Below are positions 1-46,852 of a DNA stretch of 50,066 nt, one piece after another. Source of the DNA: an uncultured Thermococci archaeon (GTDB lineage Archaea; Methanobacteriota_B; Thermococci; Thermococcales; CAYNOZ01); contig CAYTEI010000003.1 of the NCBI GenBank assembly GCA_964436705.1, positions 2,164-52,229 on the forward strand, written 5' to 3'. Under the pieces are notes generated by a model, which saw nothing but the letters and a program-made list of their open reading frames with translations, made no database searches and was not told the origin of the DNA. Numbering within the stretch: position 1 is the stretch's first letter; the number at the start of each line of letters is the position of its first letter. The position numbers were made by a program, and so were the translations under genes.

Positions 1-297
1 GTACCGTTCTCTGCAGATAAAGATAAAAATATAGAGAAATTAAAAAATGAGATATTTGATTCTCTAGGATTAATAAAAGTAAGAACTAAAAAACCTAGAC
101 AGGATCCTGAATGGCCTCCTATACCGCTAGAAAAAGGATCTAAAGTCATAGACGTAGCAAGAGAAGTACATAAAGATATGAAAGAAAACTTTAGATACGC
201 TAAGATCTGGGGAAGTTCAGTGGATTTTGATGGACAAAGAGTAGGAAAAGATCATAAAATAGAAGAAGGGGATATAGTAGAATTCCACACAAGCTAA
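1..297 (+). CDS. 3' end of a DRG/OBG-family GTP-binding protein (TGS domain), truncated by the window edge
   Basis: Frame 1 reads ...GLIKVRTKKP...VIDVAREVHKDMKENFRYAKIWGSSVDFDGQRVGKDHKIEEGDIVEFHTS*, the typical DRG TGS C-terminus. Stop TAA at 295-297. Confidence 0.85.
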   Translation, partial: VPFSADKDKNIEKLKNEIFDSLGLIKVRTKKPRQDPEWPPIPLEKGSKVIDVAREVHKDMKENFRYAKIWGSSVDFDGQRVGKDHKIEEGDIVEFHTS

Positions 298-298
298 G

Positions 299-532
299 TT
301 ATCCCTCTACAGATATTAGAGTTGAGGTCATCTGTATAGAAGCTAACTCTCTAATCTTTTCAGTTATGAACTTATCCAATTCTCTTAGATTGTCTGCCTG
401 GACTTGAAGAATGATATCATATTCTCCATAAACTACGTAGCCTTCTTCTACTTCTGGTTTCTCCATTAAGTTATTAAGAATTTTACTTTCCTCTCCTGCC
501 CCAGTAACCAATAAAACGTAAGCAGTAACCAT
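299..532 (-). CDS. Stand-alone Lrp/AsnC ligand-binding (RAM) domain protein
   Basis: MVTAYVLL...VYGEYDIILQV...IRELASIQMTSTLI pattern with no HTH. ATG at 532 follows a GGTG-like RBS; the ORF could extend to 547. Confidence 0.85.
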   Translation of the reverse strand: MVTAYVLLVTGAGEESKILNNLMEKPEVEEGYVVYGEYDIILQVQADNLRELDKFITEKIRELASIQMTSTLISVEG

Positions 533-998
533 AACAACACCATCCATAATAGAATTTAAAGTTTTTAAAGTTAACGGAAACCAAATACCTAAACAAACAA
601 AGAATTAGAAAAAAACCATTTCCCCATAAATAAATATTATAAAAACCTTTCCTAAAAGAGAATAGACATGAAAATGGTTTCATCATTATTTCTTCACCCA
701 AAAACAGTTTAGAAGCTAATTTAATCTATAAGAACAGGAATCTCTCCGATTATTAATCAATATAAAATGTTAGTAAAAACTCTCATTTTATAAATAATAA
801 TTATCATATAAGGTTCTTACCACATTGAGAACGAATAGATCAAATAAATTCATAATAATTAACTAAATAGTGTATTATCACTCGGGATCCCATATCGAAG
901 GAAATTCGGAGTATATAAAATCCCAAGTCAATTTCTTTGAAGAAAGGATCCGTAATTATTAAATATAACAAGTTAATCATAGAATTATAGGTGAGAAC

Positions 999-3281
999 TT
1001 GAAGAGGATACTAGCTATTCTGATGGCCACTATGTTATTGGCGATAACAGCAACTGCCTCTGGGCCTGTAACAGCCCAAGATGACACTATGGAAGTAGTT
1101 TATGGACAATCCTCAATGTCCGAGGCAGCTGCCGTAAGAACTAATGACATAACCGTAAGAAATGATAAGATAGAGTTTACTGTAGGAGTAGACACAGCTG
1201 GAGCATACGGAATGCCTCCGGGAGTTATAGTTGACGCTGGTAGCTACAATGATGGAACATCAAACACTGGTGACATGGTAGCAACCCTAGGATTCGTAGC
1301 AGACAACTTCGGATCATGGGTAAACTACAAAGACATAGAAGTAACAACCAACACAGACGAAAAAATCGTAGTAACATCATCCGGCCACTGGCAAGGACAC
1401 GAAGACGTAGAAATAACAACAACATACACCCTAGGAGCAGGTGATAGACACATACAATTCGAAACCACTGTCGAAAACACAGGATCAGAAACCTACGAAA
1501 TGACAACTGGTTATGGAGTATCAATGAGCGGAATGCAAACCTACCTCCCAGGATACGGAGACGTAACATCAGGAATGTACTCACTACAAGATGCAGACCA
1601 ACTCCCACTTAACTGGGCAGGAGGATACAACAAAAACAAAGGAACCTACGCATTCTACTTCGAAGAAATGACCAATTTCACAGCATCAGACACATGGGTA
1701 GACCCATTCAAACCAATAACACTAGAACCAGGAGAATCAGACACACAAAAAGCTGACTTCTACCTCTGGGAAGAAAAAGACATGACCAAACCACTAAGCA
1801 AATACTACGAAATAAACGACATCTCAACAGGAAAAATCGAAGGCACAGTTGAAACAAGTAGCGGAGAAGCAGTAGAAAATCCATACGTAAATATAGAAAC
1901 AGGTGATGACTTATTAGCGACTATAGAAGGAGATGAAAACGGAGAATTCTCAGTAAACCTAGCCGAAGGAGATTACACAATAGATGCAGGACTTAAACCT
2001 TATTCTCAAAACGATGAAGTTGAAGTAACTACTAGTGAAGGAAGTACAAAAACTATTGATTATCAAGAAGTAGAAGATCCCGGAACACTATACCTCTCCA
2101 CAAAAACTCTTGGAGAAGAAAAACCAGCTCATGTAAACATATACAGCGATGGAATGTATAGAGACACAATATATACAGACTATGATGGAGAAGCCAAACT
2201 AGAACTACCACCTGGTGACTACAAACTAGAATTATCTTACGGAGACGACTACACATCCTACAGTGCACCAAGAAGCGTAACAATAGAATCTAATACTTGG
2301 ACTGTTGCAGGAGCAAACTTCTACAAACCATATGAACCAAACGAAATGAACTACTACGGAGGAGACATGCACCAACACTCTAACATACTAGATGGAACAA
2401 CACCACCAAAAGACCTAGTCAAATCATACATAGCAAGTGATCTAGACGTAACCACAGTAACAGACCATAACAAAGTAACAAACCATGAAATAATAAATGA
2501 AATTTCTAAAGAACAAAATATACCGTTCATACCAAGCGCAGAAGTAACAACTGAAAGTTGGGGACACTACAACGTATACCCACTCGATATGGGACAAGAA
2601 ACCCAATGGAAAGGACACCCATCCGAACTATTTGCAAGCGCTAGAAATAACGGAGCAGAATTCATACAAGTAAACCATCCAAACACAGGAGGAAGCTACT
2701 TCGACAGAACCGTAGAATCAACTGATGATGGACTAGAGGTTAGTGATGATTTCGTAGATACCTTCGATGCAATAGAAATAAACGGAGCATTTGGCGACGA
2801 CGATGCCAAAACTCTAAAACAGACCTACAAATTCTGGAACCAAGGTAAAAAATACACAACCACTGCTAACTCTGACTGCCATAACGTATGGCAAGAATGG
2901 GGAGGAACTGGAGCTCAAAGAACTTACGCATACGTAGAAGGAGAATTCACTGCAGATAAATATGTTTCAGCACTAGACAACCAGCATGCATTCTGGACAT
3001 ATGGACCACTAGTCTACATGGAAGCTAACGATGGTAAAATACCTGGTGAAACCGTATCAAGTGATAGCGTTGAAATAACAGCTGAGCTAAAAAGTACTGA
3101 TGGTCTTATGAATGCAGAACTAATCAAGAACGGTGAAGTAGTTAAAACATTTGATCTCTCAGGTAAAACTGATTCAATTTCTTACAGTGAAGATGTTGAT
3201 GGAGAAGGATGGTACGCTCTACAAGTATATGACAGTAACGAGAACAGAGCACATACCAATCCAATTTGGTACGAAGGATAA
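999..3281 (+). CDS. Secreted CehA/McbA-family (PHP-fold) metallohydrolase with N-terminal beta-rich and carboxypeptidase-regulatory-like domains
   Basis: Sec signal peptide; PHP metal motifs GDMHQHS..DG, TDHN, EVT..GH, NHP, NSDCH; C-terminal AHTNPIW; GGTGA RBS before the TTG. Confidence 0.75.
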   Translation: MKRILAILMATMLLAITATASGPVTAQDDTMEVVYGQSSMSEAAAVRTNDITVRNDKIEFTVGVDTAGAYGMPPGVIVDAGSYNDGTSNTGDMVATLGFVADNFGSWVNYKDIEVTTNTDEKIVVTSSGHWQGHEDVEITTTYTLGAGDRHIQFETTVENTGSETYEMTTGYGVSMSGMQTYLPGYGDVTSGMYSLQDADQLPLNWAGGYNKNKGTYAFYFEEMTNFTASDTWVDPFKPITLEPGESDTQKADFYLWEEKDMTKPLSKYYEINDISTGKIEGTVETSSGEAVENPYVNIETGDDLLATIEGDENGEFSVNLAEGDYTIDAGLKPYSQNDEVEVTTSEGSTKTIDYQEVEDPGTLYLSTKTLGEEKPAHVNIYSDGMYRDTIYTDYDGEAKLELPPGDYKLELSYGDDYTSYSAPRSVTIESNTWTVAGANFYKPYEPNEMNYYGGDMHQHSNILDGTTPPKDLVKSYIASDLDVTTVTDHNKVTNHEIINEISKEQNIPFIPSAEVTTESWGHYNVYPLDMGQETQWKGHPSELFASARNNGAEFIQVNHPNTGGSYFDRTVESTDDGLEVSDDFVDTFDAIEINGAFGDDDAKTLKQTYKFWNQGKKYTTTANSDCHNVWQEWGGTGAQRTYAYVEGEFTADKYVSALDNQHAFWTYGPLVYMEANDGKIPGETVSSDSVEITAELKSTDGLMNAELIKNGEVVKTFDLSGKTDSISYSEDVDGEGWYALQVYDSNENRAHTNPIWYEG

Positions 3282-9448: not shown

Positions 9449-10678
9449 GTGGCCGATAAATCGAGAGAACTATATAAACTCAGGAAAAAACTTGAGGAAC
9501 TTGGCGAGATTAGAGGCAGAAATACCGAACTTGTAACACTTTATATTCCAGACGGATATAATATAAACAAAGCTTTAACACAAATGAAGCAAGAAAGAGA
9601 AACAGCTCAAAATATCAAATCAAAATCAACAAGAAAAAACGTTCAAGCCGCATTAGACAAAATAGTTCAATATCTAAAAGGAACTAAAACGACCCCAGAA
9701 AATGGACTAGTTTTATTTTGCGGAGATATATCCGATAACCCTTCTAAAAGAAATATTGAACTATACGACATAATACCGCCAAGACCTATAGACATGAAGC
9801 ACTATAAGTGCGATAAAGATTTCTTTATAGAACCCTTAAAAGATATGGCATACCACGAAAACACATATGGACTAATGATAATCGAGAAAAATGAAGCAAC
9901 TATCGGGACTCTCCGAGGAAAAAGAATTGTGAAGGAAGATCAGTTAACCTCTAATGTACCAGGGAAAACGAAAGCCGGTGGACAATCCCAGCAACGATAT
10001 AGAAGAATAAGAGAGGAAATGACACATAACTTTTTGATAGAGATAGGAGAACACGCCGACCGGATATTTAAAGAAATGGAACTAAACGGAATTATAATCG
10101 GAGGGCCTGGAGGAACAAAAGATCAATTTATCGATGGAGACTTCTTACATCATGAATTACAAACCGAGATCATAGGGAATGTCAACGTAAGTTACAATGG
10201 GGAATATGGATTAAAAGAGATGGTTAGAAAGGCTTCTGACATCCTCAAAGATCAAGAAGTTACTAAAGAAAGAGAATTAATGGAAAAATTACTTAAAAAA
10301 CTAGTAGATGAGCCAAGACATGTAACTTATGGAGTGAAAGAGGTTAAAAGATCTATTAGATTAGGCGCAGTTAAAACACTTCTAATATCTGAAGAATTTG
10401 ATCATTATGAAGTAAAAGTAGACTGTAACGACTGCGGATTCGATGGTTCAGAGTTCGTGGAAGGTTATAAGGTTAAAAACAAAGATAAATTCAATTGTCC
10501 AGAATGTGGAAGCTCTAATGTGGAGATCGAGAAGAAAGAATTAATGGAAGTTCTTATGGATGATGCCGATGACATAGGCTCAGAAGTTGAGATGATATCA
10601 ACTGATACAGATCAGGGAGTACAATTAAGGGATTCCTTTAATGGAATAGGTGCTATACTCAGATATCCAATAAACTAA
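9449..10678 (+). CDS. prf1: Peptide chain release factor aRF1
   Basis: NIKS, YKCD and GGQS motifs, CxxC...CxxC zinc ribbon, GIGAILRY. Confidence 0.97.
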   Translation: MADKSRELYKLRKKLEELGEIRGRNTELVTLYIPDGYNINKALTQMKQERETAQNIKSKSTRKNVQAALDKIVQYLKGTKTTPENGLVLFCGDISDNPSKRNIELYDIIPPRPIDMKHYKCDKDFFIEPLKDMAYHENTYGLMIIEKNEATIGTLRGKRIVKEDQLTSNVPGKTKAGGQSQQRYRRIREEMTHNFLIEIGEHADRIFKEMELNGIIIGGPGGTKDQFIDGDFLHHELQTEIIGNVNVSYNGEYGLKEMVRKASDILKDQEVTKERELMEKLLKKLVDEPRHVTYGVKEVKRSIRLGAVKTLLISEEFDHYEVKVDCNDCGFDGSEFVEGYKVKNKDKFNCPECGSSNVEIEKKELMEVLMDDADDIGSEVEMISTDTDQGVQLRDSFNGIGAILRYPIN

Positions 10679-35086: not shown

Positions 35087-35251
35087 TTTGTTATTATTAG
35101 TTTCTTATTTTTCTATTTCTAGATCGATATTCTTTATTGATTAGGTTTGATATACATATCTATCTACACAAAGGTATTAAATTCTTTGACCCTCTATTTT
35201 CTTATGATATATTTGTTATTTTAACATGTTTGATGATTATTGGTGTTAAGT

Positions 35252-36373
35252 ATGCAAGAAGATATTGATGATTTACTTGAGCGTTTAGAGGAGAGTGAGG
35301 ACAGTTTAAAGGAATTAAAGTCTAAAGTTAAGCAGATGGAGAAAGTTAGTCCAAAGAAACCTTATGTCGGTGAGAAGGAAAGTAAAAGAAGTTTTGAAGA
35401 TCTCTCCGTTAAAGATAAGGTGGAAATAATCGATCAAACAATTCTAAAAAACTTAGAATATCTAAAGTATTCTTTCTATAAACTAGGTTATAGATTTGAT
35501 ATCTTTGAAATGATACAAAATAAGGCCCCTACTATCAAAGAAGCTCAAAATATAGGCATGATGCCAAACAAAGACTTTTTAAAAAGATATTTGAAAACAG
35601 GAACCAAGCTTGGGGTCTTTGAAAAGGAAAATAATCAGATAACACTTGATCCTGAATTCAATGTATCCTTTAGCCATTTAGACTACTCAGAAATCGTGTA
35701 TGACTACATAACGATGTATGATAATATCGCCAAGATGGGGCAGTATGCTGGAATAAATTATGATCACCCGAGCATTTTCCTTGGTTTCGAAAAAGATGCT
35801 GACTTTTGGGACCTAACTCTAAACAATACATTTCACCTCTATTTTAGATCAGTTATAGCTGAATATATGGATATAGAAGGTAAGAGAGTGCTAGATGTAG
35901 GGTGTGGATCAGTCTCACCAAGATACTTTGGAAAGAAAATCGGGCCACAAGGACTTTACAGAGGAATAGACATCTCCAGAAAATTACTCAAAATAGCGGA
36001 AAACAGAAAGTCCAAGGAGGGACTAGACTGGGTTGATCTTAAAAAGATGAATGTAGTCGACCTGTATCCTAAACCAAAATATGATATCGCAATAGCTTCA
36101 TTAACATTTAAATACCTAGAAAAAGACGCAAGAATACTGAAAAACATAATGAAATCCCTCTTACCCGGAGGAAAACTAATAATCTTTAATGAAGTCTTCC
36201 CAGAAAAAATAAGTAAAAACATAGCAGCACTAAAATTCTTCAATTCACTAAGCAAGTACTACACCCAATATCTGGAAGCAAAAGAAATAAAGAACCAGAT
36301 CGAAAAGCTGGGAATCGAATACGAAACAGAAACTTTAGGTAACAGCTTCCTCATAATAAAGAAGAAAAAATAA
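35252..36373 (+). CDS. Class I SAM-dependent methyltransferase with N-terminal coiled coil
   Basis: VLDVGCG, GIDIS, and LLPGGKL motifs. Confidence 0.85.
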   Translation: MQEDIDDLLERLEESEDSLKELKSKVKQMEKVSPKKPYVGEKESKRSFEDLSVKDKVEIIDQTILKNLEYLKYSFYKLGYRFDIFEMIQNKAPTIKEAQNIGMMPNKDFLKRYLKTGTKLGVFEKENNQITLDPEFNVSFSHLDYSEIVYDYITMYDNIAKMGQYAGINYDHPSIFLGFEKDADFWDLTLNNTFHLYFRSVIAEYMDIEGKRVLDVGCGSVSPRYFGKKIGPQGLYRGIDISRKLLKIAENRKSKEGLDWVDLKKMNVVDLYPKPKYDIAIASLTFKYLEKDARILKNIMKSLLPGGKLIIFNEVFPEKISKNIAALKFFNSLSKYYTQYLEAKEIKNQIEKLGIEYETETLGNSFLIIKKKK

Positions 36374-37003: not shown

Positions 37004-38882
37004 CTTCACCTCCAGTAGATTCAATGGCATCAATTGGACATAGCTTAGCACACACCATACAGCCATCACAGAGATCCTGATGAATCACACTATGCTTTGT
37101 CTCTGGATCCACCTCAATAGCTGGACAATAAAAATCATTAATACACGCATAAATAGAGCTACAATTTTCATCATCGACCTCATTAGGTATAATTGGCTCA
37201 CCACGCTTCCTCTTTAATCTATCATTGTAAAGAGCGCAAGGACCCTCCGAAATAAGAACCGAAACCCCATCATACTCAATAGTCTCCTCAATATCCTCAA
37301 CATTATTCTTAGGATCGAAAGCATTGATCTTAGTAACCTTATCAACACCAATCCCTTCTACAACTGATACAATATCTACCTCACTAACAGGATCCGGGCC
37401 AAAGTCAGAACCAGGATTAGGCTGCTGACCAGTCATCGCAGTTACACTATTATCCAGAATTATCACAGTTAAATTCTGATTATTATGTACGGCATTAACT
37501 AGACCTGGTAAACCTGCGTGGAAGAAGGTTGAATCTCCAATCATTGCTATTACATCATCATTAAGAACGTGCTGCATCCCACTTGAAAGACCCATAGAAG
37601 AACCCATACACAGAACAGAATCAGTCTTATTATAAGGCTCTAAGAGTAACATCGAATAGCAGCCAATATCATTATTAAGCACGTAATCTTTATCCTCAAC
37701 AGCTTTTTGCACGGCTTGAAGAGTAGCTCTATGCGGACATCCAGGACAGAAAATTGGTGATCTCTGAGAAAGCTTACCTTTTAAATCATTAGCTCTCTCA
37801 ACATATCTATCATAATCATTAGAAGATTCTAGATCAAGAGCAGAAGATAATCCATCCATTACTTTAGGTACATCATACTCGCCTACCATATTAAAATCAT
37901 CAGTATTCTTACCTTTGATCTCTAAATCAGGATTCACTTCTTTTGCTAGAGCAGTGATCTTTTCTTCAATATAAGGCATTAACTCCTCAACTACTACAAG
38001 AGTTTCGAGATCTTTTATAAAACCAGTAATAGTTCCTAATGGTAATGGATAGGTCGTTCCAAGTTTTAGGATGCTTGGATCAATTTCAAGATTATCAAGA
38101 GCTTCTAAAGTATGTAGATATGAAACTCCCGATGTTATAACACCGATATCGCTGCTCCCCTCAATAAACTTATTAAATTGATTATCTTCAAATTCTTTTT
38201 GGATTTCATCTATTTTTTCTAGGGCTTCTCCTTTTAATCGTCTTGCAGTAGCTCCGATAGTGTAGTAATTATCTTTTACATCTTCCCAATCTTTTTTCTC
38301 AAATTTGGATCTATTAACTTCGCCAAGTTCAATATTGGAGCTTTGATGATTAACTCTTGTTGTAGTCCTTACTAAGGTGACAATCTCGTGTTTTTCTGAT
38401 AGTTCGAAGGCCCATTTAACCATTTCATATGCTTCTTGGGCTGTCGATGGCTCGATCATTGGTACATGTGCTGCTTGAGCATAGTATCTGGCGTCTTGTT
38501 CACTTTGTGATGAGTGGGCGTGAGGATCATCGGCCGCAAGTAGTACCATTCCCGCGTTGATCCCGGTATATCCTAAACTGAAGAAGGTATCACTTGCAAC
38601 GTTTAGTCCAACGCTTTTCATTGAGGTGAATGCTCTTACTCCAGCCATGGAGGCGCCGGCAGCAGTTTCTAGAGCAACTTTTTCGTTAGAAACTACTTCC
38701 ATTTTAAGATCTTCATAGTTCTCGGATAACTGATAAACTGTATCAAGTATCTCGTTTGTTGGGGAACCAGGGAAGAAGGCTGTTACTTTTGCATCACTTT
38801 CGAGAACTGCTCTGGCAATCCCTTGATTAGCAACCATAAAAGCTGTTTTGGGCTCAGGATCTATCAAATCATCTAGGGACAT
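36993..38882 (-). CDS. iorA: Indolepyruvate:ferredoxin oxidoreductase alpha subunit
   Basis: NEKVALE, MKSVGLNVASD, SSQSEQD, FCPGCPHR, DIGCY, IGDSTFFH, TAMTGQQP, plus C-terminal Fe-S cysteines. Confidence 0.95.
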   Translation of the reverse strand: MSLDDLIDPEPKTAFMVANQGIARAVLESDAKVTAFFPGSPTNEILDTVYQLSENYEDLKMEVVSNEKVALETAAGASMAGVRAFTSMKSVGLNVASDTFFSLGYTGINAGMVLLAADDPHAHSSQSEQDARYYAQAAHVPMIEPSTAQEAYEMVKWAFELSEKHEIVTLVRTTTRVNHQSSNIELGEVNRSKFEKKDWEDVKDNYYTIGATARRLKGEALEKIDEIQKEFEDNQFNKFIEGSSDIGVITSGVSYLHTLEALDNLEIDPSILKLGTTYPLPLGTITGFIKDLETLVVVEELMPYIEEKITALAKEVNPDLEIKGKNTDDFNMVGEYDVPKVMDGLSSALDLESSNDYDRYVERANDLKGKLSQRSPIFCPGCPHRATLQAVQKAVEDKDYVLNNDIGCYSMLLLEPYNKTDSVLCMGSSMGLSSGMQHVLNDDVIAMIGDSTFFHAGLPGLVNAVHNNQNLTVIILDNSVTAMTGQQPNPGSDFGPDPVSEVDIVSVVEGIGVDKVTKINAFDPKNNVEDIEETIEYDGVSVLISEGPCALYNDRLKRKRGEPIIPNEVDDENCSSIYACINDFYCPAIEVDPETKHSVIHQDLCDGCMVCAKLCPIDAIESTGGEDDE

Positions 38883-39062
38883 TAACCCACCTTAACATAT
38901 ACTATAAACTTATTTATTAAAATCTTTTTTAATCAGGTATAAAAAATAAGAATATGTAAAAATACAACAAATGTATCTATAAGAAAGAACTGTTAACCTA
39001 GTCTTTAAATACCCCAAATGCTTTGTTGAAAAGTAAAAATTAGAGGTTTATCTAATAAGGCT

Positions 39063-40544
39063 TTATTTTTCCTCGATAAACTTGTTCCTCACTTGTTTTC
39101 CTGAAAGAGTGACCATTGGCATGCCTCCTCCCGGATTTACACTGCCTCCTACGAAATACAGATTATTATATTTTTCACTTTCTTTCGGAGCTTTGAAACC
39201 CTTATTTTTCCCCTTATCAGAGACTACACCGTATATGGATCCTTTATTTGAATAATAATTCTTTTTTATGTCTTCTGGCTTCCAAATGTCCTCAGTAATA
39301 ATATGATCTCTTAAATCTTCTAATCCCATTCTTTCAAGCTTATCTAAGACATTTTCTTTAAATTCAGCAAATTCTTCTTCCGTAAATGATTCTTCTTCTA
39401 TGTGAGGAATGTGTGGAAGGATTTTTATGTTTTCACAGCCTTCAGGCGCTTGGGATTCGTCTGTTCTCGTTGAGGCAACCAAATAAATCGTTGGGTCTTC
39501 TGGAAGTTTTTTATCATTGTAAACAGAATCAAAGTGATCTTTTGGGTCTTTAGAAAAGAAAAAGTTGTGATGAGCTAATTGATCGTATCTTCTATCGACT
39601 CCAAGATGAATTACGTATCCCGAGCATGATGGTTCGAATTTCTTTTCATACCTTTTTACAATGCTTTGATCTTCCAGTAATTCTCTATAAGTTGGAATAA
39701 CTTCCATATTAGATACAAATATTTCTCCTTCAATTAGTTCGTTATTTTCTGTTTCAATGCTTTTAACAGAATTATTTTCAGTATTAATATTTACTATTTC
39801 AGTGTTAAGATTTATTTCTATGTCTAGATCCTTCATAGCTTCTTTCAGGCCTTCTGCCAAATTATACATTCCACCACTTACATACCAAAGCCCATACTCA
39901 AACTGTACAAATGGAAGCAAATTTAGAACTGCCGGAGCATCATAAGGAGATGAACCAACATATTTTACGAAAAAATCCATAATATGCGTCAAATAATCAT
40001 TACTTATCCGTTTATCTACACCTTCATGCATTGTATTGAAATAATCAAAATCCCAAAGGGAACGAATAAACCCATGATTTTTCAGAACTTCCCAAAGATT
40101 ATCTAAACCCTTATTAAAGTAACTATCCTCTGCAGCATCATATAGATTATTAGAATAATCCATGAATTCTCTTAAATCCTTTTTATCTTTTTTGCCGAGA
40201 ATTTCATTATTCTTAACTATTTCATCTACGTCACCGTACAGATCTATGACTTGATCATCCTCGAAGAAATTTCTCCATTGAAGATCCAGTTTTTCAATTT
40301 CAACATAATCATCCATATCTTTTCCGGCCATATCAAAAAGATCGTAGAAAATGTGGGGCATTGTTAGGATTGATGGTCCTAAATCAAATTTAAATCCATC
40401 TTTCTCCAGTAAATTCAGTTTTCCACCAATTTGATCATTTTTCTCATAAAGTTCCACGGAATAACCTTCCGAAGCAAAGGAAATCGAGGCGGATACACCC
40501 CCTAGGCCTCCACCAATAACAATAACCTTTTCTTTATTATTCAT
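39063..40544 (-). CDS. crtP: 4,4'-diapolycopene/diaponeurosporene oxidase (CrtNb/CrtP subfamily of CrtI-like enzymes)
   Basis: VIGGGLGG, FDLGPSILTMPHIF, KYVGSSPYDAPAV, IKILPHIP, GGSVNPGGGMPMVTLSG, as recalled for staphylococcal CrtP and Methylomonas CrtNb. Confidence 0.85.
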   Translation of the reverse strand: MNNKEKVIVIGGGLGGVSASISFASEGYSVELYEKNDQIGGKLNLLEKDGFKFDLGPSILTMPHIFYDLFDMAGKDMDDYVEIEKLDLQWRNFFEDDQVIDLYGDVDEIVKNNEILGKKDKKDLREFMDYSNNLYDAAEDSYFNKGLDNLWEVLKNHGFIRSLWDFDYFNTMHEGVDKRISNDYLTHIMDFFVKYVGSSPYDAPAVLNLLPFVQFEYGLWYVSGGMYNLAEGLKEAMKDLDIEINLNTEIVNINTENNSVKSIETENNELIEGEIFVSNMEVIPTYRELLEDQSIVKRYEKKFEPSCSGYVIHLGVDRRYDQLAHHNFFFSKDPKDHFDSVYNDKKLPEDPTIYLVASTRTDESQAPEGCENIKILPHIPHIEEESFTEEEFAEFKENVLDKLERMGLEDLRDHIITEDIWKPEDIKKNYYSNKGSIYGVVSDKGKNKGFKAPKESEKYNNLYFVGGSVNPGGGMPMVTLSGKQVRNKFIEEK

Positions 40545-40556
40545 ATTTTTAACTCC

Positions 40557-41129
40557 TTAATAAATGAAAGGAAAATATTTATACCGATTTTTCTTCCATT
40601 CAATATATTTATCACCTAATCTTTCTTCTAGTAATCTTTCTTCCTCATTGATTCTTTTTTTCAATGCAATAAACATTAGAAAACAGGTAAATATAACTCC
40701 AATTAAGTTACCAATAAATAGACTGACTCCAAGAACTATTAGAAATAGTCCTAAATAAAGAGGATGTCTTAGATACCTATAGGGGCCAACACTAACAAGA
40801 TTTACAACATTTGGAACTATTAAATCTCTAGTAAAGTTATTACCCAATAAAATAGCGCTCCAATATCTAAGAGAAAGACCGAGAAAAATAATAAAGATCC
40901 CTATTAATTCAAGCATAGGCAGAAATTCCCTAGAAACCATATTACTAATATTTGAAATAAATAAAACAAAAGAAAACCCTATAGATATTAAAATAGAGAT
41001 AAATATCAGATTATATGTTTTTTGACCTTTCTTTGATTTTTCTGAATGGAAAACAAGGAATTCTGACCACCAAACAAGAATTAAGATAGATACAGCTAAA
41101 TTTCTCAAGTTCCATTCAAGTGCGACCAT
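40557..41129 (-). CDS. Isoprenylcysteine carboxyl methyltransferase (ICMT/PEMT) family membrane methyltransferase
   Basis: About 5 TM helices; LGNNF, GPYRYLRHPLYLG, RINEEERLL...GDKY...PFIY motifs. Confidence 0.85.
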   Translation of the reverse strand: MVALEWNLRNLAVSILILVWWSEFLVFHSEKSKKGQKTYNLIFISILISIGFSFVLFISNISNMVSREFLPMLELIGIFIIFLGLSLRYWSAILLGNNFTRDLIVPNVVNLVSVGPYRYLRHPLYLGLFLIVLGVSLFIGNLIGVIFTCFLMFIALKKRINEEERLLEERLGDKYIEWKKNRYKYFPFIY

Positions 41130-41131
41130 TT

Positions 41132-42673
41132 TTAAATCTCCCTATACAGAGAAATAAGGTTCTTGATCTTTTCAAGAAAACCTATATCTCCGTATTCGGT
41201 GTGAATTATCTTTTTAAGAGTTTTATAAAAATCTTCAGTATACGGGAACCAGTTAACCTCGTCACCACTCCTTTTATTCACCATTACAGAAGTCCTAATA
41301 CAGAATCTCCTCAAACCCTCTACTCCATGATATAAACCAATTCCACTCTTTTTAACTCCGCCAAAAGGAAGTTGAGGATTACCAACATTCTTAACTACAT
41401 CATTAATATAACTATTACCAACTCTTAAGTGATTAACCACTCTCTTAGCTTTACTAATATCCTCGGTCCAAACACTAGAATTTAGTCCATACCTTGTATC
41501 ATTAGCAAGTTCAATAGCTTCTTTCTCAGTACTGAAAGGCATAATAGGAAGAACAGGACCAAAAGTTTCATCCTGCATGATCTTCATACTATGATCCACA
41601 TTTTTTAGCACTTGAGGATAGTAAAAGAGATCTTCACGCTTTCTATCAGTTAAAATCTTAGCTCCCTTATCCAGGGCATCATCTAAATGCTCATCAACTA
41701 TATTAACTTGCTGAGGATATATTATAGGCCCAATATCAGAGTCCTTATCATCACCAAACCTAAGATCCTTAACTCTTTCCACAACTCTTTCCACGAACTC
41801 ATTATAAATGCTATTCTGAACATATAATCTTTCAATAGAAACACATAACTGACCAGAATTTGCAAATGCTCCGTAAACAGCTCCTTCTACCGCTCGATCC
41901 AGATCAGAATCTTCAAAGACTATCATAGGATCCTTACCACCCATTTCAAGCTCAACAGGAATTAAATTCTTTGAAGCAGCCTCCATAATCTTCTTACCGG
42001 TTTCAACACTACCGGTGAAAAAGATTTTATCAGGCTCAGCGTCAATTAATTTCTTACCAACGTTTCCACCACCTTGAACCACTTGGAAAACATTATCAGG
42101 AAGACCCGAATCCTGACAAATCTCTTTAGCAACTTCACCAACCAAAGGAGTTACCTCGGATGGTTTTAAAATAACTGTACTACCAGCAACCAACGCAGAC
42201 AAAGTAGGCACCATAGATAATTGAAGCGGATAATTCCAAGGAGAAATGACAAGAGTCACTCCTAAAGGCTTATACTCAATGTAGGAATTGTTCTTCCGGA
42301 AGATCCTGGGGGTCTTCTTTTCCTCTTTACTCAGTATTTCTTCTGCATTATCTTCATAATACTTTATTGTATCGAGGGTTGGTAGTATATCCGACATTAA
42401 TGCCTCATTATCTACCTTGCCAGTATCTTTCTTGATATCCTTAACTAATTCATCGAGATTCTCGATCATAGATTTTCTAATGTTTGATAAATGATTTGTT
42501 CTTTTTTTAACACTTAAATTGCTCCAAGTTTTAAAAGCTTCTCTTGAATCCTTAATTACTTCTTTTATTTCCTTTTCAGAAGCTTTAGAATAAGTATTAA
42601 CAATTTCATTATTTTGGGGATTTTTTGATATGATCTTGTCGTCTTTAGTTATTTCAAACACCCTCGTTACCAA
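41132..42673 (-). CDS. Aldehyde dehydrogenase, putative diapocarotenoid-aldehyde oxidase (Ald/AldH)
   Basis: [38 protein letters not shown] motifs. Lies between crtN and crtP. Confidence 0.9.
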
Positions 42674-44144
42674 ATCTTTTCTTTATTTCATGGGCTGCGA
42701 TTCTTCCAGACTCGTAAATAGTAGGTAGCCCACTACCAGGATTAGTTCCTCCTCCAACAATCCACATATTATCGAATTCTTCAAACTTATTTCTAGGCCG
42801 CCAGACTAACATCTGCCTTATATTATGGGATAGATTGAATGTAGATCCAATCCCAACATTCATTTCTTCCTTCCAATCCAAAGGTGTTAGTATCTTTTCG
42901 TACTCAATATGTCCCTCTAGATCTTCTAATTCTGCTTTTTCTTCTAGTTTATTGATTATTTGGTTCCTGTATTCTTCTTTTTTGGATTCCCAATCTGCAT
43001 CGGATTTTAGATTTGGAACTGGTACGAGCACGTAAAGGGTTGAATGCCCTTCAGGAGCTAGAGTAGGATCTGTAATTGAAGCGTTCTGAACGTAAAAGGA
43101 AGGATCTTCAGGTACAACTTTGAGTTCTTCTATTTCTTTGAAATTTCTTTCGTAATCTTCTGTAATGAAGACATTATGATGTTCAAGATCTTCATATAAC
43201 TTATCAAGTCCCAAATACAGCATGAACGTGGAACAGGAAAACTTCTTATTATCTATTTTTTCATCACTGTATTTATTTCTTTTCTCATTAGGGATCAAGT
43301 TTTTCATTGACCAAGCGAAATCAGAATTCATAATTATCTGATCTAATTCAATTTCCTCACCGCTTGAAAGTTCAATTCCTTGGGCTTCTCCATCCTCAAT
43401 CTTTATTTCTTCAACTTCGGAATCTAATCTTACTTCACCGCCTTTTTCCCTGAATAACTGAGTCATACCCTCTGCCAATTGGTTTAAGCCACCAATAGCA
43501 TGATATATATCCCAAGTATGCTCTATATATGGAATAATACTGAACATTGAAGGACAATTATACGGTGACATCCCTAAGTACTTAGACTGGAAAGTGAAGC
43601 CAACTTTAATTTTTTCATCGCTAAAATGTTTACCAAGATCATCCCAAAGACTCGTAAAAGGCCTAAGCACTGGAAGCATTTTTAAAACTTCTGATGAAAT
43701 AATATCAGTGTATTTATAGTAACCTCTTTGCAGAGCGGGTAAGGTTCTGTCCAGCTTCTTTTTATTATCTTTCATAAAGCTTTCATATCCATCACGATCG
43801 TCAGGCTCTATATTAGATATGGATTCCTTATTTTTTTCTTTATCTGGTCCTAATTTTAGCTTGTCTCCGTCTGAATATACTATTTGATAATATGGATCTA
43901 ATTCCACTAAGTCCACATATTCATCTAGATCTCTACCACATTCCTCGAATATTTCCTTTAGAATAAAGTCCATCATGAAAAAAGTTGGTCCTATATCGAA
44001 GGTGTAGCCATTTTCCTGAATTTTGGCGTTTCTTCCTCCGACTTCTGACTCTTTTTCGTATATAGTTACATCGTATCCGTAATGGGCTAAGAGATCTCCG
44101 GCTGCAAGCCCTCCAGGACCCGCTCCTATTATCCCGATCTTCAT
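42654..44144 (-). CDS. crtN: 4,4'-diapophytoene desaturase (CrtN subfamily)
   Basis: [62 protein letters not shown], as recalled for Methylomonas-type CrtN. Confidence 0.83.
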
Positions 44145-44357
44145 AATTTTTACCTCAAAGAGATTTTTAATTAGAATTAACCAAATTTAATTTTTAAAGA
44201 GTGATTTTGATCCAATTGATATTACATTTATATAAGTTTTTTATCTATTAAAGTTTTAGTATTTTCTAAAAAGAGGTTTAATTGTAACCTGATCGAAAGT
44301 TGTAAATTGGTTTGCACATAAGCCCTATATGTATTAGAAATAAGTAATAAAAAATAT

Positions 44358-44894
44358 TTAAAGATCAATTACTCCTTTTACTCGTTCTTCTACGTCTTCT
44401 AAGTCCTTTTCATTTGGACGTCCTTTAATGTTACCTAATCGTCCTTCTTTGGAGGCATAATCCATATTTTCTGTATAATCTCCGACTATATACCATTCTC
44501 CTAGAATTGTGTAACCTAAATGATCGAACATTTGCCCCATGTATTTCACGGCCGGTACGGCTTCTTTTCTCCCTGTATGGACTCCACCATAGGTACAATA
44601 AACTATAGCCCTTCGATTCGATCTCTTAGGACACCCTGGTTTTATATCATCAGTTTCAGAGTACTTGGAGAGAAGTTTTGAGAAAAGATCTCTCATTGGT
44701 TTTCCTGGTAACCAATTATAGACTCCGGATCCGGCGAAAACGAATTCGTAGTTCAAAATATTTAAGCCATCCAAATCCGAATCTATTTTTACAGTATTCA
44801 CCTCATGCCCGATACCTTTTAAAGTGTGTTCTATTCGGTTCGCAACTTTCTCAGTATTTCCTGAAGACGAATAAAAAACATTTAGGACTTTCAA
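44358..44894 (-). CDS. Flavodoxin-like protein
   Basis: YSSSGNTEKVA FMN loop, GSGVY, YCTYGG, GRPN motifs. Confidence 0.85.
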   Translation of the reverse strand: MKVLNVFYSSSGNTEKVANRIEHTLKGIGHEVNTVKIDSDLDGLNILNYEFVFAGSGVYNWLPGKPMRDLFSKLLSKYSETDDIKPGCPKRSNRRAIVYCTYGGVHTGRKEAVPAVKYMGQMFDHLGYTILGEWYIVGDYTENMDYASKEGRLGNIKGRPNEKDLEDVEERVKGVIDL

Positions 44895-45028
44895 ATTTAT
44901 CCCTCCAAGCTTGCTATCTCTTATAATCTTGTGAATTTTAAAAACTATGGAGATACAATTTAAAATTTATAAAGATATAAAGCATAATATAAAGGTATAA
45001 TTCCGGATACAGAATATTGACTAAATCT

Positions 45029-46108
45029 TTAATTAATTTCTACTTGCTTGAATCCTCCGAAATTTTTTCTTACTCCGTTGTAGACAGGTTTTCCAACAAA
45101 TTCTTTAAATATCTCATTTGCTTTGTTTTCTGGATCTATATCTTCGAATTTATCTGGAAAAACCTTCTTTCCAATGTAATATGAATTAGCTAGCACTATT
45201 TCGAAATTAGTTCCATAGAACATGGATGGGAGTATTCCATAGATCTCTTCGGTTTTCATTACTGATAGAACTTGGTATTTAGGTTCTTTTAGTTCTTTTT
45301 TGCATCTTTTGAGATTTGATTCGGATATGAACATTATTTCTGGGTTCCATGTTACTAATTTTTCCCTACTAATCATTGCGTGTCCATCGATTGAACTAGC
45401 AACATTTTTAGCGTTTAGGAATTTGAATGGTGCGAATGGGTGCTGAGTTGAGATTATTCCTGCTCCTCCTTCATGGGATCTTCCTCCGATATATACTTCT
45501 GGTTTAGCTTTTTTCGGGATTTCCTTTGTTCTATTATTTAGATCAGATATTATGGTTTCAGTATAATTAATAAGTTCTTGTGTTCTTTTTTGTTTATTTA
45601 GTACTTTTCCAACAGTTTCTAGGGCTTCATAGAATTGTTTTTGGTTTTTTATTATTTTTCCTGGTGAGGTTAGTACCACGGGGATACCTGTTTTGTCTTG
45701 TAGATCATTTGCTTTTCCCTCGGTTAAGGCGGTTGCTATTATGACGTCAGGGCTTTGTTCCGTTATTAGGCTTGGATCTCCTCCAAAGTCTGTACCGATG
45801 GATGTTTTTTCTTGTATTTCGGGGTGTGCCATGTTGTATGGGTTGAGTTTTCCCCATTTTTTCTCTGTTTGCTCTACGCCAACTACTTTGTCTGTAGCGT
45901 TTACAAAGGTTATCAATCTTAGTGCGCTTGGTCCGATTCCAATTACTTTATTTACTTTGTTTGGGATCTTAACTTTTCTTCCCGCCATATCTGTTATCTC
46001 TTCTTTGTTGGCTTGGCTTTGACTTTGGTTAATACATCCACTAACTAAGAGTATGGAAACTATTAACATGGTTATTGTGATCTTGAACATTTTTGATTTA
46101 TTAAACAT
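45029..46108 (-). CDS. Iron/cobalamin-type ABC transporter substrate-binding lipoprotein
   Basis: LVSGC lipobox; TDMAGRKV, VVGVE, PDVI, WNPE, and PDKFEDID motifs. Confidence 0.88.
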   Translation of the reverse strand: MFNKSKMFKITITMLIVSILLVSGCINQSQSQANKEEITDMAGRKVKIPNKVNKVIGIGPSALRLITFVNATDKVVGVEQTEKKWGKLNPYNMAHPEIQEKTSIGTDFGGDPSLITEQSPDVIIATALTEGKANDLQDKTGIPVVLTSPGKIIKNQKQFYEALETVGKVLNKQKRTQELINYTETIISDLNNRTKEIPKKAKPEVYIGGRSHEGGAGIISTQHPFAPFKFLNAKNVASSIDGHAMISREKLVTWNPEIMFISESNLKRCKKELKEPKYQVLSVMKTEEIYGILPSMFYGTNFEIVLANSYYIGKKVFPDKFEDIDPENKANEIFKEFVGKPVYNGVRKNFGGFKQVEIN

Positions 46109-46111
46109 TTT

Positions 46112-46852
46112 TTATTCCTCTTTAAATTTTATTAAGGGTTGTAAATCGTTTTCAAGTAGATCTTTTATGTTTACGCCTTCTTGTACTTTCTTCATTACTT
46201 CTTTGTCCTCTTTTATTTTGGAACCCGCTATAGCATCTACCCCGTAATCGAATAGTACGGAAGAAAAAGGAGTTGAAGGTCCTAAAACAATGTTATATGA
46301 ATTTTGGGATAATTCAAGGAGTCTAGGTAGAGTTTTATTTATTAGGGTGGTTCCAGTTATTAATACGTAGTCTGCTTTTGGTAAAATGTACTCAGAAGCG
46401 GTATCCGGTAGGTCTCCTTTGATGTTTTTTCTTTCTAAGGTCCAGACCTCTACATCTTTATCTGTTCTATCGACCCATGGGAAGTGCCCAATGACGGCGA
46501 CCTTGTCTCCATCCGATAATTTTTTATCAATGAAATCAAAAGCGTTCATTTTTTCTCCTTCGGGCTCCATTAAAGAGTTAAGAGCAGCTAGTCCGATGCT
46601 GGCTTCTGTAAAGTTCCATGATTTTATGTATTTGGTTAATTCGAGAGCTGTTTTCTCTGTGAGGTTCCCAGCGTTTTTGATTGAGGAATCTTCTCGGCTG
46701 TCGTATCTCATTGATATTCCAGCGTTCCTACTTTTGACGTATACTTCGTGTAGGCCTACCCTTATCTTTTTGATTTCTTCGTCTTGGATTTCAGATATTA
46801 GATCTTGATAAATCTTGAAATTGTAGTCTTGGTGATTTTGCATCTTATCCAT
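46112..46852 (-). CDS. DUF364 (Rossmann-like, putative metal/cofactor-binding) protein
   Basis: ASIGLAALNS, VAVIGHFP, ITGTTLINKT, LGPSTP, GVDAIAG motifs. Confidence 0.85.
   Translation of the reverse strand: MDKMQNHQDYNFKIYQDLISEIQDEEIKKIRVGLHEVYVKSRNAGISMRYDSREDSSIKNAGNLTEKTALELTKYIKSWNFTEASIGLAALNSLMEPEGEKMNAFDFIDKKLSDGDKVAVIGHFPWVDRTDKDVEVWTLERKNIKGDLPDTASEYILPKADYVLITGTTLINKTLPRLLELSQNSYNIVLGPSTPFSSVLFDYGVDAIAGSKIKEDKEVMKKVQEGVNIKDLLENDLQPLIKFKEE

Follow-up and report, generated by a model that had tools for sequence, protein, structure and literature searches.

The stretch of DNA analysed here (the window: 50,066 nucleotides of contig CAYTEI010000003.1, assembly GCA_964436705.1, from an uncultured Thermococci archaeon) carries a compact minus-strand operon at positions 39063-44144. 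The listing of open reading frames (ORFs) gives four minus-strand frames of 496, 513, 190, and 493 aa in this segment. These encode a crtN-type FAD desaturase (gene 1; 42654-44144), an NAD(P)-dependent aldehyde dehydrogenase (ALDH; gene 2, 41132-42673), an integral-membrane S-adenosylmethionine (SAM) methyltransferase of the ICMT/PEMT family (gene 3; 40557-41129), and a crtP-type, diapocarotenoid terminal oxygenase-like FAD enzyme (last gene; 39063-40544). The first two genes overlap by 20 bp, and gaps of 2 bp and 12 bp separate the ald gene from the methyltransferase gene and the latter from crtP. An earlier note, made from the letters alone, had described four tightly coupled minus-strand genes for a CrtI-family pair, an aldehyde dehydrogenase, and an ICMT-family methyltransferase. 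The ORF listing returns the same frames, and the Pfam and NCBIfam profiles concur with the family assignments.

By profile and tree position, the upstream flavoprotein is best classed as a CrtN-type desaturase. It scores 478.1 bits against TIGR02734 (crtI_fam; curated cut-off 238.1) and carries the N-terminal FAD motif GxGxxG (GAGPGG) at residue 7. Its identity is 43% to the first desaturase of an Azospirillum cluster, 33% to CrtN of Staphylococcus xylosus, and about 32% to C40 CrtI, and the CrtN proteins of Firmicutes (33-38%) belong to a different clade. In the trees, in which all supports are SH-aLRT values from quick searches, the protein falls within a 32-row clade (support 98-99) that includes the Azospirillum first desaturase and a crtN-like protein of Nostoc. 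A clade of its own, with support 100, unites the C40 CrtI of Pantoea, Thermus, Thiodictyon, and Roseobacter. The crtN-type clade also stands apart from the CrtD anchors and from the homologues found in class-mates of the host. All anchors came from annotated plasmids: the S. xylosus crtO-P-Q-M-N operon, the Azospirillum cluster, the Nostoc crtN-like protein, a Roseobacter CrtD, the haloarchaeal C50 CrtD of Halocatena, and the four C40 CrtI just named. The C30 role of the Azospirillum desaturase is itself inferred from its cluster context, which comprises ald, two crtI-family genes, an acyltransferase, and a glycosyltransferase. The second tree held 57 rows, after removal of two loci with a branch length of 10 in the first tree (L020 and L021). 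One further row, an ALDH fragment from the genome G067 (branch length 10), was disregarded in this second tree.

The last operon gene can be assigned as CrtP-type (C30 diapocarotenoid terminal oxygenase-like) by clade membership. It reaches 365.2 bits against the TIGR02734 cut-off of 238.1, with the FAD motif GxGxxG (GGGLGG) at residue 11, and its identity to the CrtP encoded in the S. xylosus crtOPQMN operon is 53.7%. In the search, the nine Staphylococcus plasmid records (9/9; 53-54%) were its nine best matches. Identity was about 35% for alphaproteobacterial second copies and 27% for Pantoea CrtI. The clade that it forms with S. xylosus CrtP receives support of 100 and 99 in the two trees. 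The 54% identity to the CrtP of a staphyloxanthin-type operon speaks for a substrate much like that of the latter. The two operon flavoproteins share only about 27% identity with each other, in keeping with the earlier view of two different CrtI-family enzymes. Since their affinities differ (alphaproteobacterial-type for CrtN, Firmicutes-type for CrtP), the operon appears to be a mosaic. With few anchors and weak links between the major clades, this is a lead and not a proof, and the CrtN and CrtP trees are described as globally congruent in the excerpted text of Santana-Molina et al. 2022 (PMC9907078).

The NCBIfam CrtID and CrtD equivalog models score 366/359 and 220-317 bits on the flavoproteins. 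These high sub-threshold values, together with the placement of the CrtN-type clade as a weakly supported (83) sister of C40 CrtI in one tree, are what could be cited for C40/C50 CrtI/CrtD enzymes, such as those of bacterioruberin synthesis in haloarchaea, or for archaeal enzymes of lipid modification. Such an identity is very improbable. The scores lie far below the cut-offs of 500-640 bits, and the trees place neither flavoprotein with C40 CrtI, Roseobacter CrtD, or Halocatena CrtD. Moreover, the flanks of the operon in the window showed no CrtB-type synthase, lycopene elongase, or CruF, and the only SQS/PSY-family gene of the host is of squalene synthase (SQS) type. The phylogeny thus agrees with the C30-type character that had been read from the sequence.

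The ALDH matches PF00171 (Aldedh) at 480 bits and retains both catalytic residues, Glu and Cys, as the motifs EMGGK (residue 243) and GQLC show in the alignment to 4q92; no NCBIfam equivalog model reaches its cut-off. It is 65% identical to the ALDH of a second genome of the genus (G070) and 54-57% identical to those of two further archaeal loci (L009 and L010). Its operon position makes it a candidate C30 carotenoid aldehyde dehydrogenase (AldH/CrtNc). The methyltransferase scores 55.5 bits against PF04140 (ICMT; cut-off 24) and aligns over its full length to the ICMT structure of Methanosarcina acetivorans (4a2n; E 6.6e-11). Hydrophobic segments are present, and a C-terminal RHPxY...EE block aligns to 4a2n. 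At 66.2 bits, the protein remains under the 160-bit equivalog cut-off of NF040696 (protein-S-isoprenylcysteine O-methyltransferase), and a query of the ESM Atlas returned only ICMT-family clusters. Orthologues occupy the same operon position in L009, L010, G067, and G070.

A backbone synthase is encoded elsewhere in the host genome. A PF00494 search recovered a single SQS/PSY-family gene (147 bits; contig C4:41757-42791), unlinked to the operon and located between MoeA and a nuclease/TrpRS pair. Among the NCBIfam models, TIGR01559 (squalene synthase) scores highest on it (138.5 bits), with 64 bits for HpnD, 44 for HpnC, and 34-47 for the CrtB models. The nearest named proteins come from Nanohaloarchaeota (49%), followed by haloarchaeal 'farnesyl-diphosphate farnesyltransferase' at about 40%; identity to S. 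xylosus CrtM is 26%. The same search found no crtM in the host genome, which is 89.6% complete. As there is no crtM and the sole synthase is unlinked and of squalene synthase type, the layout points to a 'squalene route' resembling that of Methylomonas, and the crtM-type (diapophytoene) backbone route assumed at first is abandoned. Operon and synthase occur together in both genomes of the genus (2/2; the host, G000, and G070), and the two synthases are 55% identical by tblastn. The MoeA-SQS-TrpRS synteny is kept in both (G000:C4:41757-42791, equivalent to L007:9758-10795, and G070:C2:30464-31489). None of 60 class-mates of the host (30 genomes of the same order, from family f2, which are mostly closed and about 2 Mb long, and 30 of other families) carries this gene. 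Because the synthase is haloarchaeal or nanohaloarchaeal in kind and found in 0/60 class-mates, it is a further acquisition from the gene pool of halophiles, independent of that of the operon.

We propose that the operon encodes the later part of a C30 (4,4'-diapo)carotenoid pathway that starts from squalene and leads to a carotenoic-acid methyl ester, and we assign this reading a probability of roughly 0.55. The unlinked squalene-synthase-type enzyme on contig C4 would convert farnesyl diphosphate into the C30 backbone, from which the CrtN-type flavoprotein would produce a conjugated diapocarotene. The CrtP-type flavoprotein may then oxidize a terminal methyl group to an aldehyde, which the ALDH would convert into the acid. 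In the last step, the membrane-embedded ICMT-family enzyme would use SAM to methylate the lipid-bound carboxylate, giving the methyl ester. The whole route may be gated by O2, so that the flavoproteins turn over when O2 intrudes, and the product would act as a membrane antioxidant or stiffener. What the analysis shows is the identity of the genes, the clades to which they belong, the conservation and foreign origin of the operon, and its co-occurrence with the synthase in this genus. We infer which substrate is used, how many desaturations take place, whether oxidation affects one end or both, what accepts the methyl group and the electrons, and what the product does for the cell.

A survey of archaeal genomes for the operon, as suggested in the earlier note, recovered the four genes together in five archaeal genomes. 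These are the host (G000), its congener (G070), a Methanonatronarchaeia genome (G067), Ca. Methanohalarchaeum (L010/G063), and a soda-lake metagenome-assembled genome (MAG) labelled Thermoplasmata (L009/G062). Such recurrence indicates that the adjacency of the genes is more than chance. The order crtN-ald-methyltransferase-crtP is shared by G000, G070, and G067, and L009 and L010 display the cyclic permutation ald-methyltransferase-crtP-crtN. Among 14 genome-contig loci from the homology search, L009 and L010 hold all four genes. Two others (L008 and L016) contain an adjacent flavoprotein pair only, the ALDH-family stretch of L016 being merely 30-33% identical to the window's, and in the remaining loci there is either a lone desaturase gene or a more distant member of the family. 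In L009, a UbiA-family prenyltransferase gene (9518-10447, plus strand), absent from the window operon, directly follows the crtN-type gene. The congener operon retains the same tight order, with identities of 70% (crtN-type), 65% (ald), 48% (methyltransferase), and 68% (crtP-type). Its surroundings differ from those of the host: it resides on another contig, beside NAC and aminoacyl-tRNA synthetase genes. A Peripla_BP_2/FecCD/ABC transporter is also encoded near it.

The origin of the module is foreign to the host's class. The nearest homologues are unnamed proteins (66-70%), followed by Methanonatronarchaeum (62%), Ca. Methanohalarchaeum, and the soda-lake Thermoplasmata-labelled MAG. Bacterial anaerobic halophiles come next at 55-63%, among them Halanaerobiaceae MAGs, Orenia, and Proteinivorax, within a wider shell of anaerobic bacteria at about 50%. 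The horizontal transfer proposed from the sequence is therefore upheld, since the closest relatives belong to Methanonatronarchaeia and Halanaerobiales and not to the host's class. The bacterial-type kinship claimed with it fares less evenly: the module is indeed shared with bacteria, but its nearest relatives are hypersaline anaerobes of both domains and not Methylomonas or staphylococci. In one Halanaerobiaceae MAG (L011:6843-7787, minus strand), a protein with HTH_3 and B12-binding domains is encoded divergently from the crtN-type homologue. Its domain pair is presumably similar to that of light-responsive carotenogenesis regulators of the CarH/LitR type.

Vertical inheritance within the host's class was considered and rejected. 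No desaturase match exists in the 30 same-order genomes (0/30), and the homologues in 8 of the 30 genomes of other families are only 31-47% identical and belong to a different clade, with Thorarchaeota and the Halocatena CrtD. That clade, which unites CrtI-family genes of class-mates (L024, L025, L027, L028, and L030), a Thorarchaeota locus (L019), and haloarchaeal C50 CrtD, has support 100 and possibly corresponds to the all-archaeal group of which Santana-Molina et al. speak. The Thorarchaeota locus shows an SQS/PSY-like gene flanked by two CrtI-family genes. A single archaeal clade for the desaturase was likewise rejected by an approximately unbiased (AU) test (p-AU 9.6e-05, for a group named after seeing the tree). 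The test used 29 of the 57 rows, covering the halophile and anaerobe clades with Azospirillum as outgroup and leaving out the G067 row; three members of the tested group (P0002-P0004) are without taxonomy. A single transfer into archaea is ruled out on this post hoc grouping, which implies more than one inter-domain transfer. The archaeal occurrence itself has a precedent, as the excerpted text of Santana-Molina et al. 2022 (PMC9907078) attributes 'C30 pathways' to Methanonatronarchaeia and CrtN to Ca. Poseidoniia. The earlier note had named only C40/C50 carotenoids for archaea. Between host and congener, the nonsynonymous rate (dN) of both flavoproteins is 0.22-0.24 with a saturated synonymous rate (dS), and the ALDH shows a dN/dS of 0.12. 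The module appears to have been acquired from a gene pool common to strictly anaerobic halophiles of both domains. To judge from these substitution rates, it was then inherited vertically under purifying selection within the genus.

Assembly error is a scarcely credible explanation of these data. The segment would on this view be chimeric, or would stem from bacteria contaminating the archaeal bin, and the view could draw on the many bacteria among the closest named homologues and on the Logan contigs over the region, which are short and shallow (depth about 3-6). For this reason, coverage holes such as 40540-40987 in run X2 were given no weight. The operon has a GC content of 0.28-0.37, and its codon-usage distance lies at the 35th-85th percentile of 387 long genes, both native values. 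The host contig spans 68 kb, with archaeal genes on either side of the operon. A Logan contig (run X1, record 7) spans crtN to the adjacent flavodoxin-like gene (43739-45000), and a contig of an approximately 91% identical relative, from a different study, spans the downstream flank to crtP (38723-39088). Both junctions, whose continuity had been singled out for checking, are hence bridged and no chimera was seen. The chimeric-insert candidate was rejected on these grounds and on the presence of the same operon on another contig of the congener.

A related population shows a different arrangement at this site. In run X3 (record 19), from a hypersaline lake, a 3.9-kb contig of an approximately 90% identical relative (depth 17.5) joins window positions 42345-42568 to 44290-44909. 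The 5' part of ald there meets the flavodoxin-like region, and 263 other letters replace the 1.7-kb crtN-type gene. The junction indicates that this population has a crtN-less variant, perhaps a relative with the permuted order of L009 and L010.

The regions bordering the operon were read directly from the sequence. Upstream, an AT-rich intergenic stretch of 213 bp (44145-44357, minus strand) contains a TTATATAA element about 90 nt upstream of the crtN-type gene and GAGGT 8 nt before its ATG, which we take as a putative operon promoter and ribosome-binding site. A sigma-70 promoter scan, unsuited to an archaeon, gave 28 sites for 25.3 expected. Downstream (38883-39062, minus strand), T-rich runs directly past the crtP stop codon form a putative terminator, followed by the upstream region proper to the next gene. 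That flank encodes the alpha and beta subunits of indolepyruvate:ferredoxin oxidoreductase (IOR). Beside IOR beta, a plus-strand gene (35240-36373) encodes a class I SAM methyltransferase whose C-terminal half is UbiE/Methyltransf_11-like. According to Pfam and NCBIfam, the upstream flank comprises a weak flavodoxin-like gene, a Peripla_BP_2 protein, DUF364, and transcription factor B (TFB; NF001658, 469 bits). The Peripla_BP_2 binding protein and the DUF364/DUF4213 'heavy-metal chelation' protein occupy 45029-46852 on the minus strand. The flavodoxin-like gene (44358-44894) has Pfam scores under the cut-off and was dropped as a conserved partner, as tblastn gave no match to it in L008-L021 or on the G070 contig. 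Pfam and NCBIfam searches of the window flanks found no crtM, crtQ glycosyltransferase, or crtO acyltransferase, the genes that would mark a staphyloxanthin-type operon.

The host genome comprises 1.99 Mb in 167 contigs. Its PheRS alpha marker has Theionarchaea and Methanofastidiosia as nearest named relatives, at only 50-54%, and McrA was not found in it. The archaeal nature of the host is confirmed by the flanking TFB and IOR alpha/beta genes. Its anaerobic character, also proposed earlier, agrees with the presence of IOR and a superoxide reductase and with the searches for oxidases and quinone markers described below. Salt adaptation is moderately supported: across 1159 ORFs of at least 200 aa the pI has a median of 5.24, (D+E)/(K+R) equals 1.26, and the public runs holding the stretch are hypersaline-lake and sediment metagenomes.

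Several observations weigh against the carotenoid pathway proposed above, and the first group concerns the electron acceptor. CRTI needs O2, 'replaceable by quinones', to reoxidise its FAD, in the excerpted wording of one study (PMC3382138). In the host genome, at 89.6% completeness, neither cytochrome bd nor a heme-copper oxidase was found, nor were the quinone pathway markers MqnA/D and MenB. The lack of a quinone pathway, combined with the CRTI-type need for O2 or quinone, suggests that the pathway probably runs only when O2 intrudes. There is no RNA run among the public runs holding the stretch. Furthermore, anaerobes with functional crtM/crtN made no carotenoid anaerobically (PMC11611032). 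The case in point is Eubacterium limosum, whose crtM/crtN were functional aerobically and yet gave no carotenoid under anaerobic conditions (PMC11611032). For that organism a retained, idle relic has been proposed (PMC11611032, excerpted text), and the host operon could by the same token be a remnant of O2-dependent enzymes without present use in a strict anaerobe, as the missing quinone pathway and oxidases would allow. We regard this as improbable. All four ORFs are intact with catalytic motifs, gene order is kept in the congener, and the substitution rates given above (dN 0.22-0.24 against saturated dS; ALDH dN/dS 0.12) count against it. Codon usage is fully ameliorated, and the module has spread repeatedly among anaerobic halophiles.

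The second group of contrary points concerns the genes themselves. The crtN-type clade is joined to the other major clades with little support (83 or 'open'), and C40 is the substrate of one protein in the adjoining 'CrtN-like' branch (PMC9907078, in part). The ALDH is only 26% identical to that of the Azospirillum cluster, the sole C30-cluster ALDH compared, and the two are not orthologous. Gene order alone points to a carboxylate as the putative methyl acceptor, and the family names of the profile matches show that amines, phosphates, and thiols are likewise methylated by enzymes of the ICMT/PEMT family. The SQS-type gene scores below the TIGR01559 cut-off (138.5 vs 286.75 bits) and could supply squalene that is itself used as a membrane lipid. 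In addition, PF00494 searches gave no SQS/PSY match in G062 or G063, both with the full operon, nor in any of five Methanonatronarchaeia species genomes (0/5; G063 and G066-G069), two of which (2/5) carry the operon. The 'C30 pathway' label of that class therefore seems to rest on the amino oxidases. Environmental loci point the same way. Among 80 metagenome loci with relatives of the methyltransferase (37 of at least 5 kb), three (L052, L054, and L067) place a crtP-type gene, 45-52% identical, directly after it. The tblastn searches of their flanks found no CrtN-type gene, window-type ALDH, or synthase, and no carotenoid-related family appeared among the 10 flanking ORFs scanned. In L052, the pair adjoins a gene of the CAAX-prenyl-protease family (M48; 85-1320, minus strand). 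It is possible that such methyltransferase-CrtP pairs act on prenylated compounds other than carotenoids.

These absences speak for the main rival, in which the module modifies some other polyprenyl compound, or exogenous isoprenoids such as squalene and carotenoids set free from haloarchaeal biomass in brine sediments, and in which the host synthase has a separate role in supplying membrane squalene. The core of the module would then be the methyltransferase and the CrtP-type oxidase, to which the ALDH and a CrtN-type desaturase were added. Operons without a PF00494 gene (G062, G063, and the Methanonatronarchaeia) and methyltransferase-CrtP pairs without CrtN, ALDH, or synthase, one of them by a CAAX-prenyl-protease gene, fit such a role. 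In the excerpted text of Santana-Molina et al. (PMC9907078), 'other functions' are suggested for carotenoid amino oxidases where a head-to-head synthase is lacking. The host synthase is of haloarchaeal lineage, where squalene is a membrane component (PMC9907078, in part). This rival is unlikely, although it has to be taken seriously. The 54% identity to a canonical staphyloxanthin-type CrtP speaks against it, as does the co-occurrence of synthase and operon in 2/2 genus genomes, both being foreign to the class. The sequence of desaturase, oxygenase, and ALDH also corresponds to known C30 logic (PMC10745290, excerpted text).

A wider and more speculative version of the carotenoid pathway extends beyond the host. 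We tentatively suggest that a compact CrtN-AldH-ICMT-CrtP module circulates across domains among strict anaerobes of hypersaline sediments and yields an O2-gated, methyl-capped C30 polyene. As quinones are lacking, the flavoproteins would turn over only upon O2 intrusion, and the polyene would be formed just when an antioxidant or a stiffener of the membrane is required. The ICMT-family member would then act as a carotenoate carboxyl O-methyltransferase, and the synthase-less Methanonatronarchaeia would use squalene from haloarchaeal neighbours. We consider this version doubtful as a whole.

Neither the logic of the pathway nor its presence in one class of archaea is new, the latter having been pointed out in 2022. 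The novel elements are the host lineage, the conserved ICMT-family operon member, and the apparent CrtN/CrtP mosaic. Equally novel are the cross-domain, habitat-bound distribution among strict anaerobes and the finding that some carriers have no head-to-head synthase. The literature consulted assigns no ICMT-type enzyme to carotenoid esterification and no carotenoid genes to Halanaerobiales; in one Exiguobacterium paper, an ICMT-family protein and a phytoene desaturase simply appear in a list of proteins of secondary metabolism. If the proposed pathway is correct, squalene-route C30 carotenoid synthesis extends to deep-branching anaerobic archaea related to Theionarchaea and Methanofastidiosia. 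An ICMT-family membrane enzyme would become a concrete candidate for the methyl-esterification of C30 carotenoic acids. It would also follow that the hypersaline anoxic gene pool has exchanged a lipid-pigment module between domains more than once. The question already raised for Clostridia and E. limosum would be sharpened to the role of carotenoid-type amino oxidases in strict anaerobes, some of them synthase-less. That role is directly testable, because Methanonatronarchaeum is in culture.

Among known systems, Methylomonas offers the closest architectural parallel. Its squalene synthase gene is unlinked, crtN, crtNb, and ald/crtNc are clustered, and the product is 4,4'-diapolycopene-4,4'-dioic acid (PMC10745290, excerpted text). 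As in the window, a desaturase, a terminal oxygenase, and an aldehyde dehydrogenase form a cluster apart from the synthase, and chemistry would proceed from desaturation to aldehyde to acid. The likeness to the Methylomonas layout drawn in the earlier note is thus borne out by the unlinked synthase and the clustered crtN/ald/crtNb genes (PMC10745290). The window differs in an extra ICMT-family methyltransferase between ald and crtP. Its host is an anaerobic archaeon in which no quinone pathway or oxidase was detected. The likeness to Methylomonas is one of architecture only.

The staphylococcal crtOPQMN operon shares with the window a CrtP that is 53-54% identical to the last gene, with support 99-100. 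The window is without crtM and without a nearby crtQ or crtO, and AldH is encoded elsewhere in staphylococci. S. xylosus CrtN is 33% identical and belongs to another clade, and the window's synthase is of SQS type, with 26% identity to S. xylosus CrtM. The squalene-route C30 clusters of Planctomycetes and Alphaproteobacteria, are represented here by the Azospirillum plasmid cluster. The first desaturase of Azospirillum is 43% identical to that of the window (support 98-99), whereas the window's crtP-type protein is 54% identical to Staphylococcus and 35% to the second Azospirillum copy. The ALDHs share only 26%, and the window lacks glycosyl- and acyltransferases and has the added methyltransferase.

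For the proposed end product, the halophilic Bacilli provide a precedent. Glycosylated C30 carotenoic acid methyl esters are natural products of halophilic Bacilli, including Planococcus and Halobacillus (PMC8933910, excerpted text), and a terminal O-methyl ester is the kind of end product that would be expected from the ALDH and methyltransferase of the window. In its excerpted text, the corresponding gene-cluster paper contains the word 'methyltransferase' 0 times and names no esterifying enzyme (PMC8933910). A tblastn search for an ICMT-family relative in two Bacilli loci (L032 and L038) found none. A further comparison is with ICMT itself. The enzyme of M. acetivorans (4a2n) and the window methyltransferase share a fold family, a full-length alignment, the C-terminal cofactor block, and a membrane-embedded form. 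They differ in that the window protein scores 66 bits against the NF040696 cut-off of 160, and its operon partners are carotenoid-type and not prenylation enzymes. In the role proposed here, both would act on the same kind of target, a carboxylate attached to an isoprenoid.

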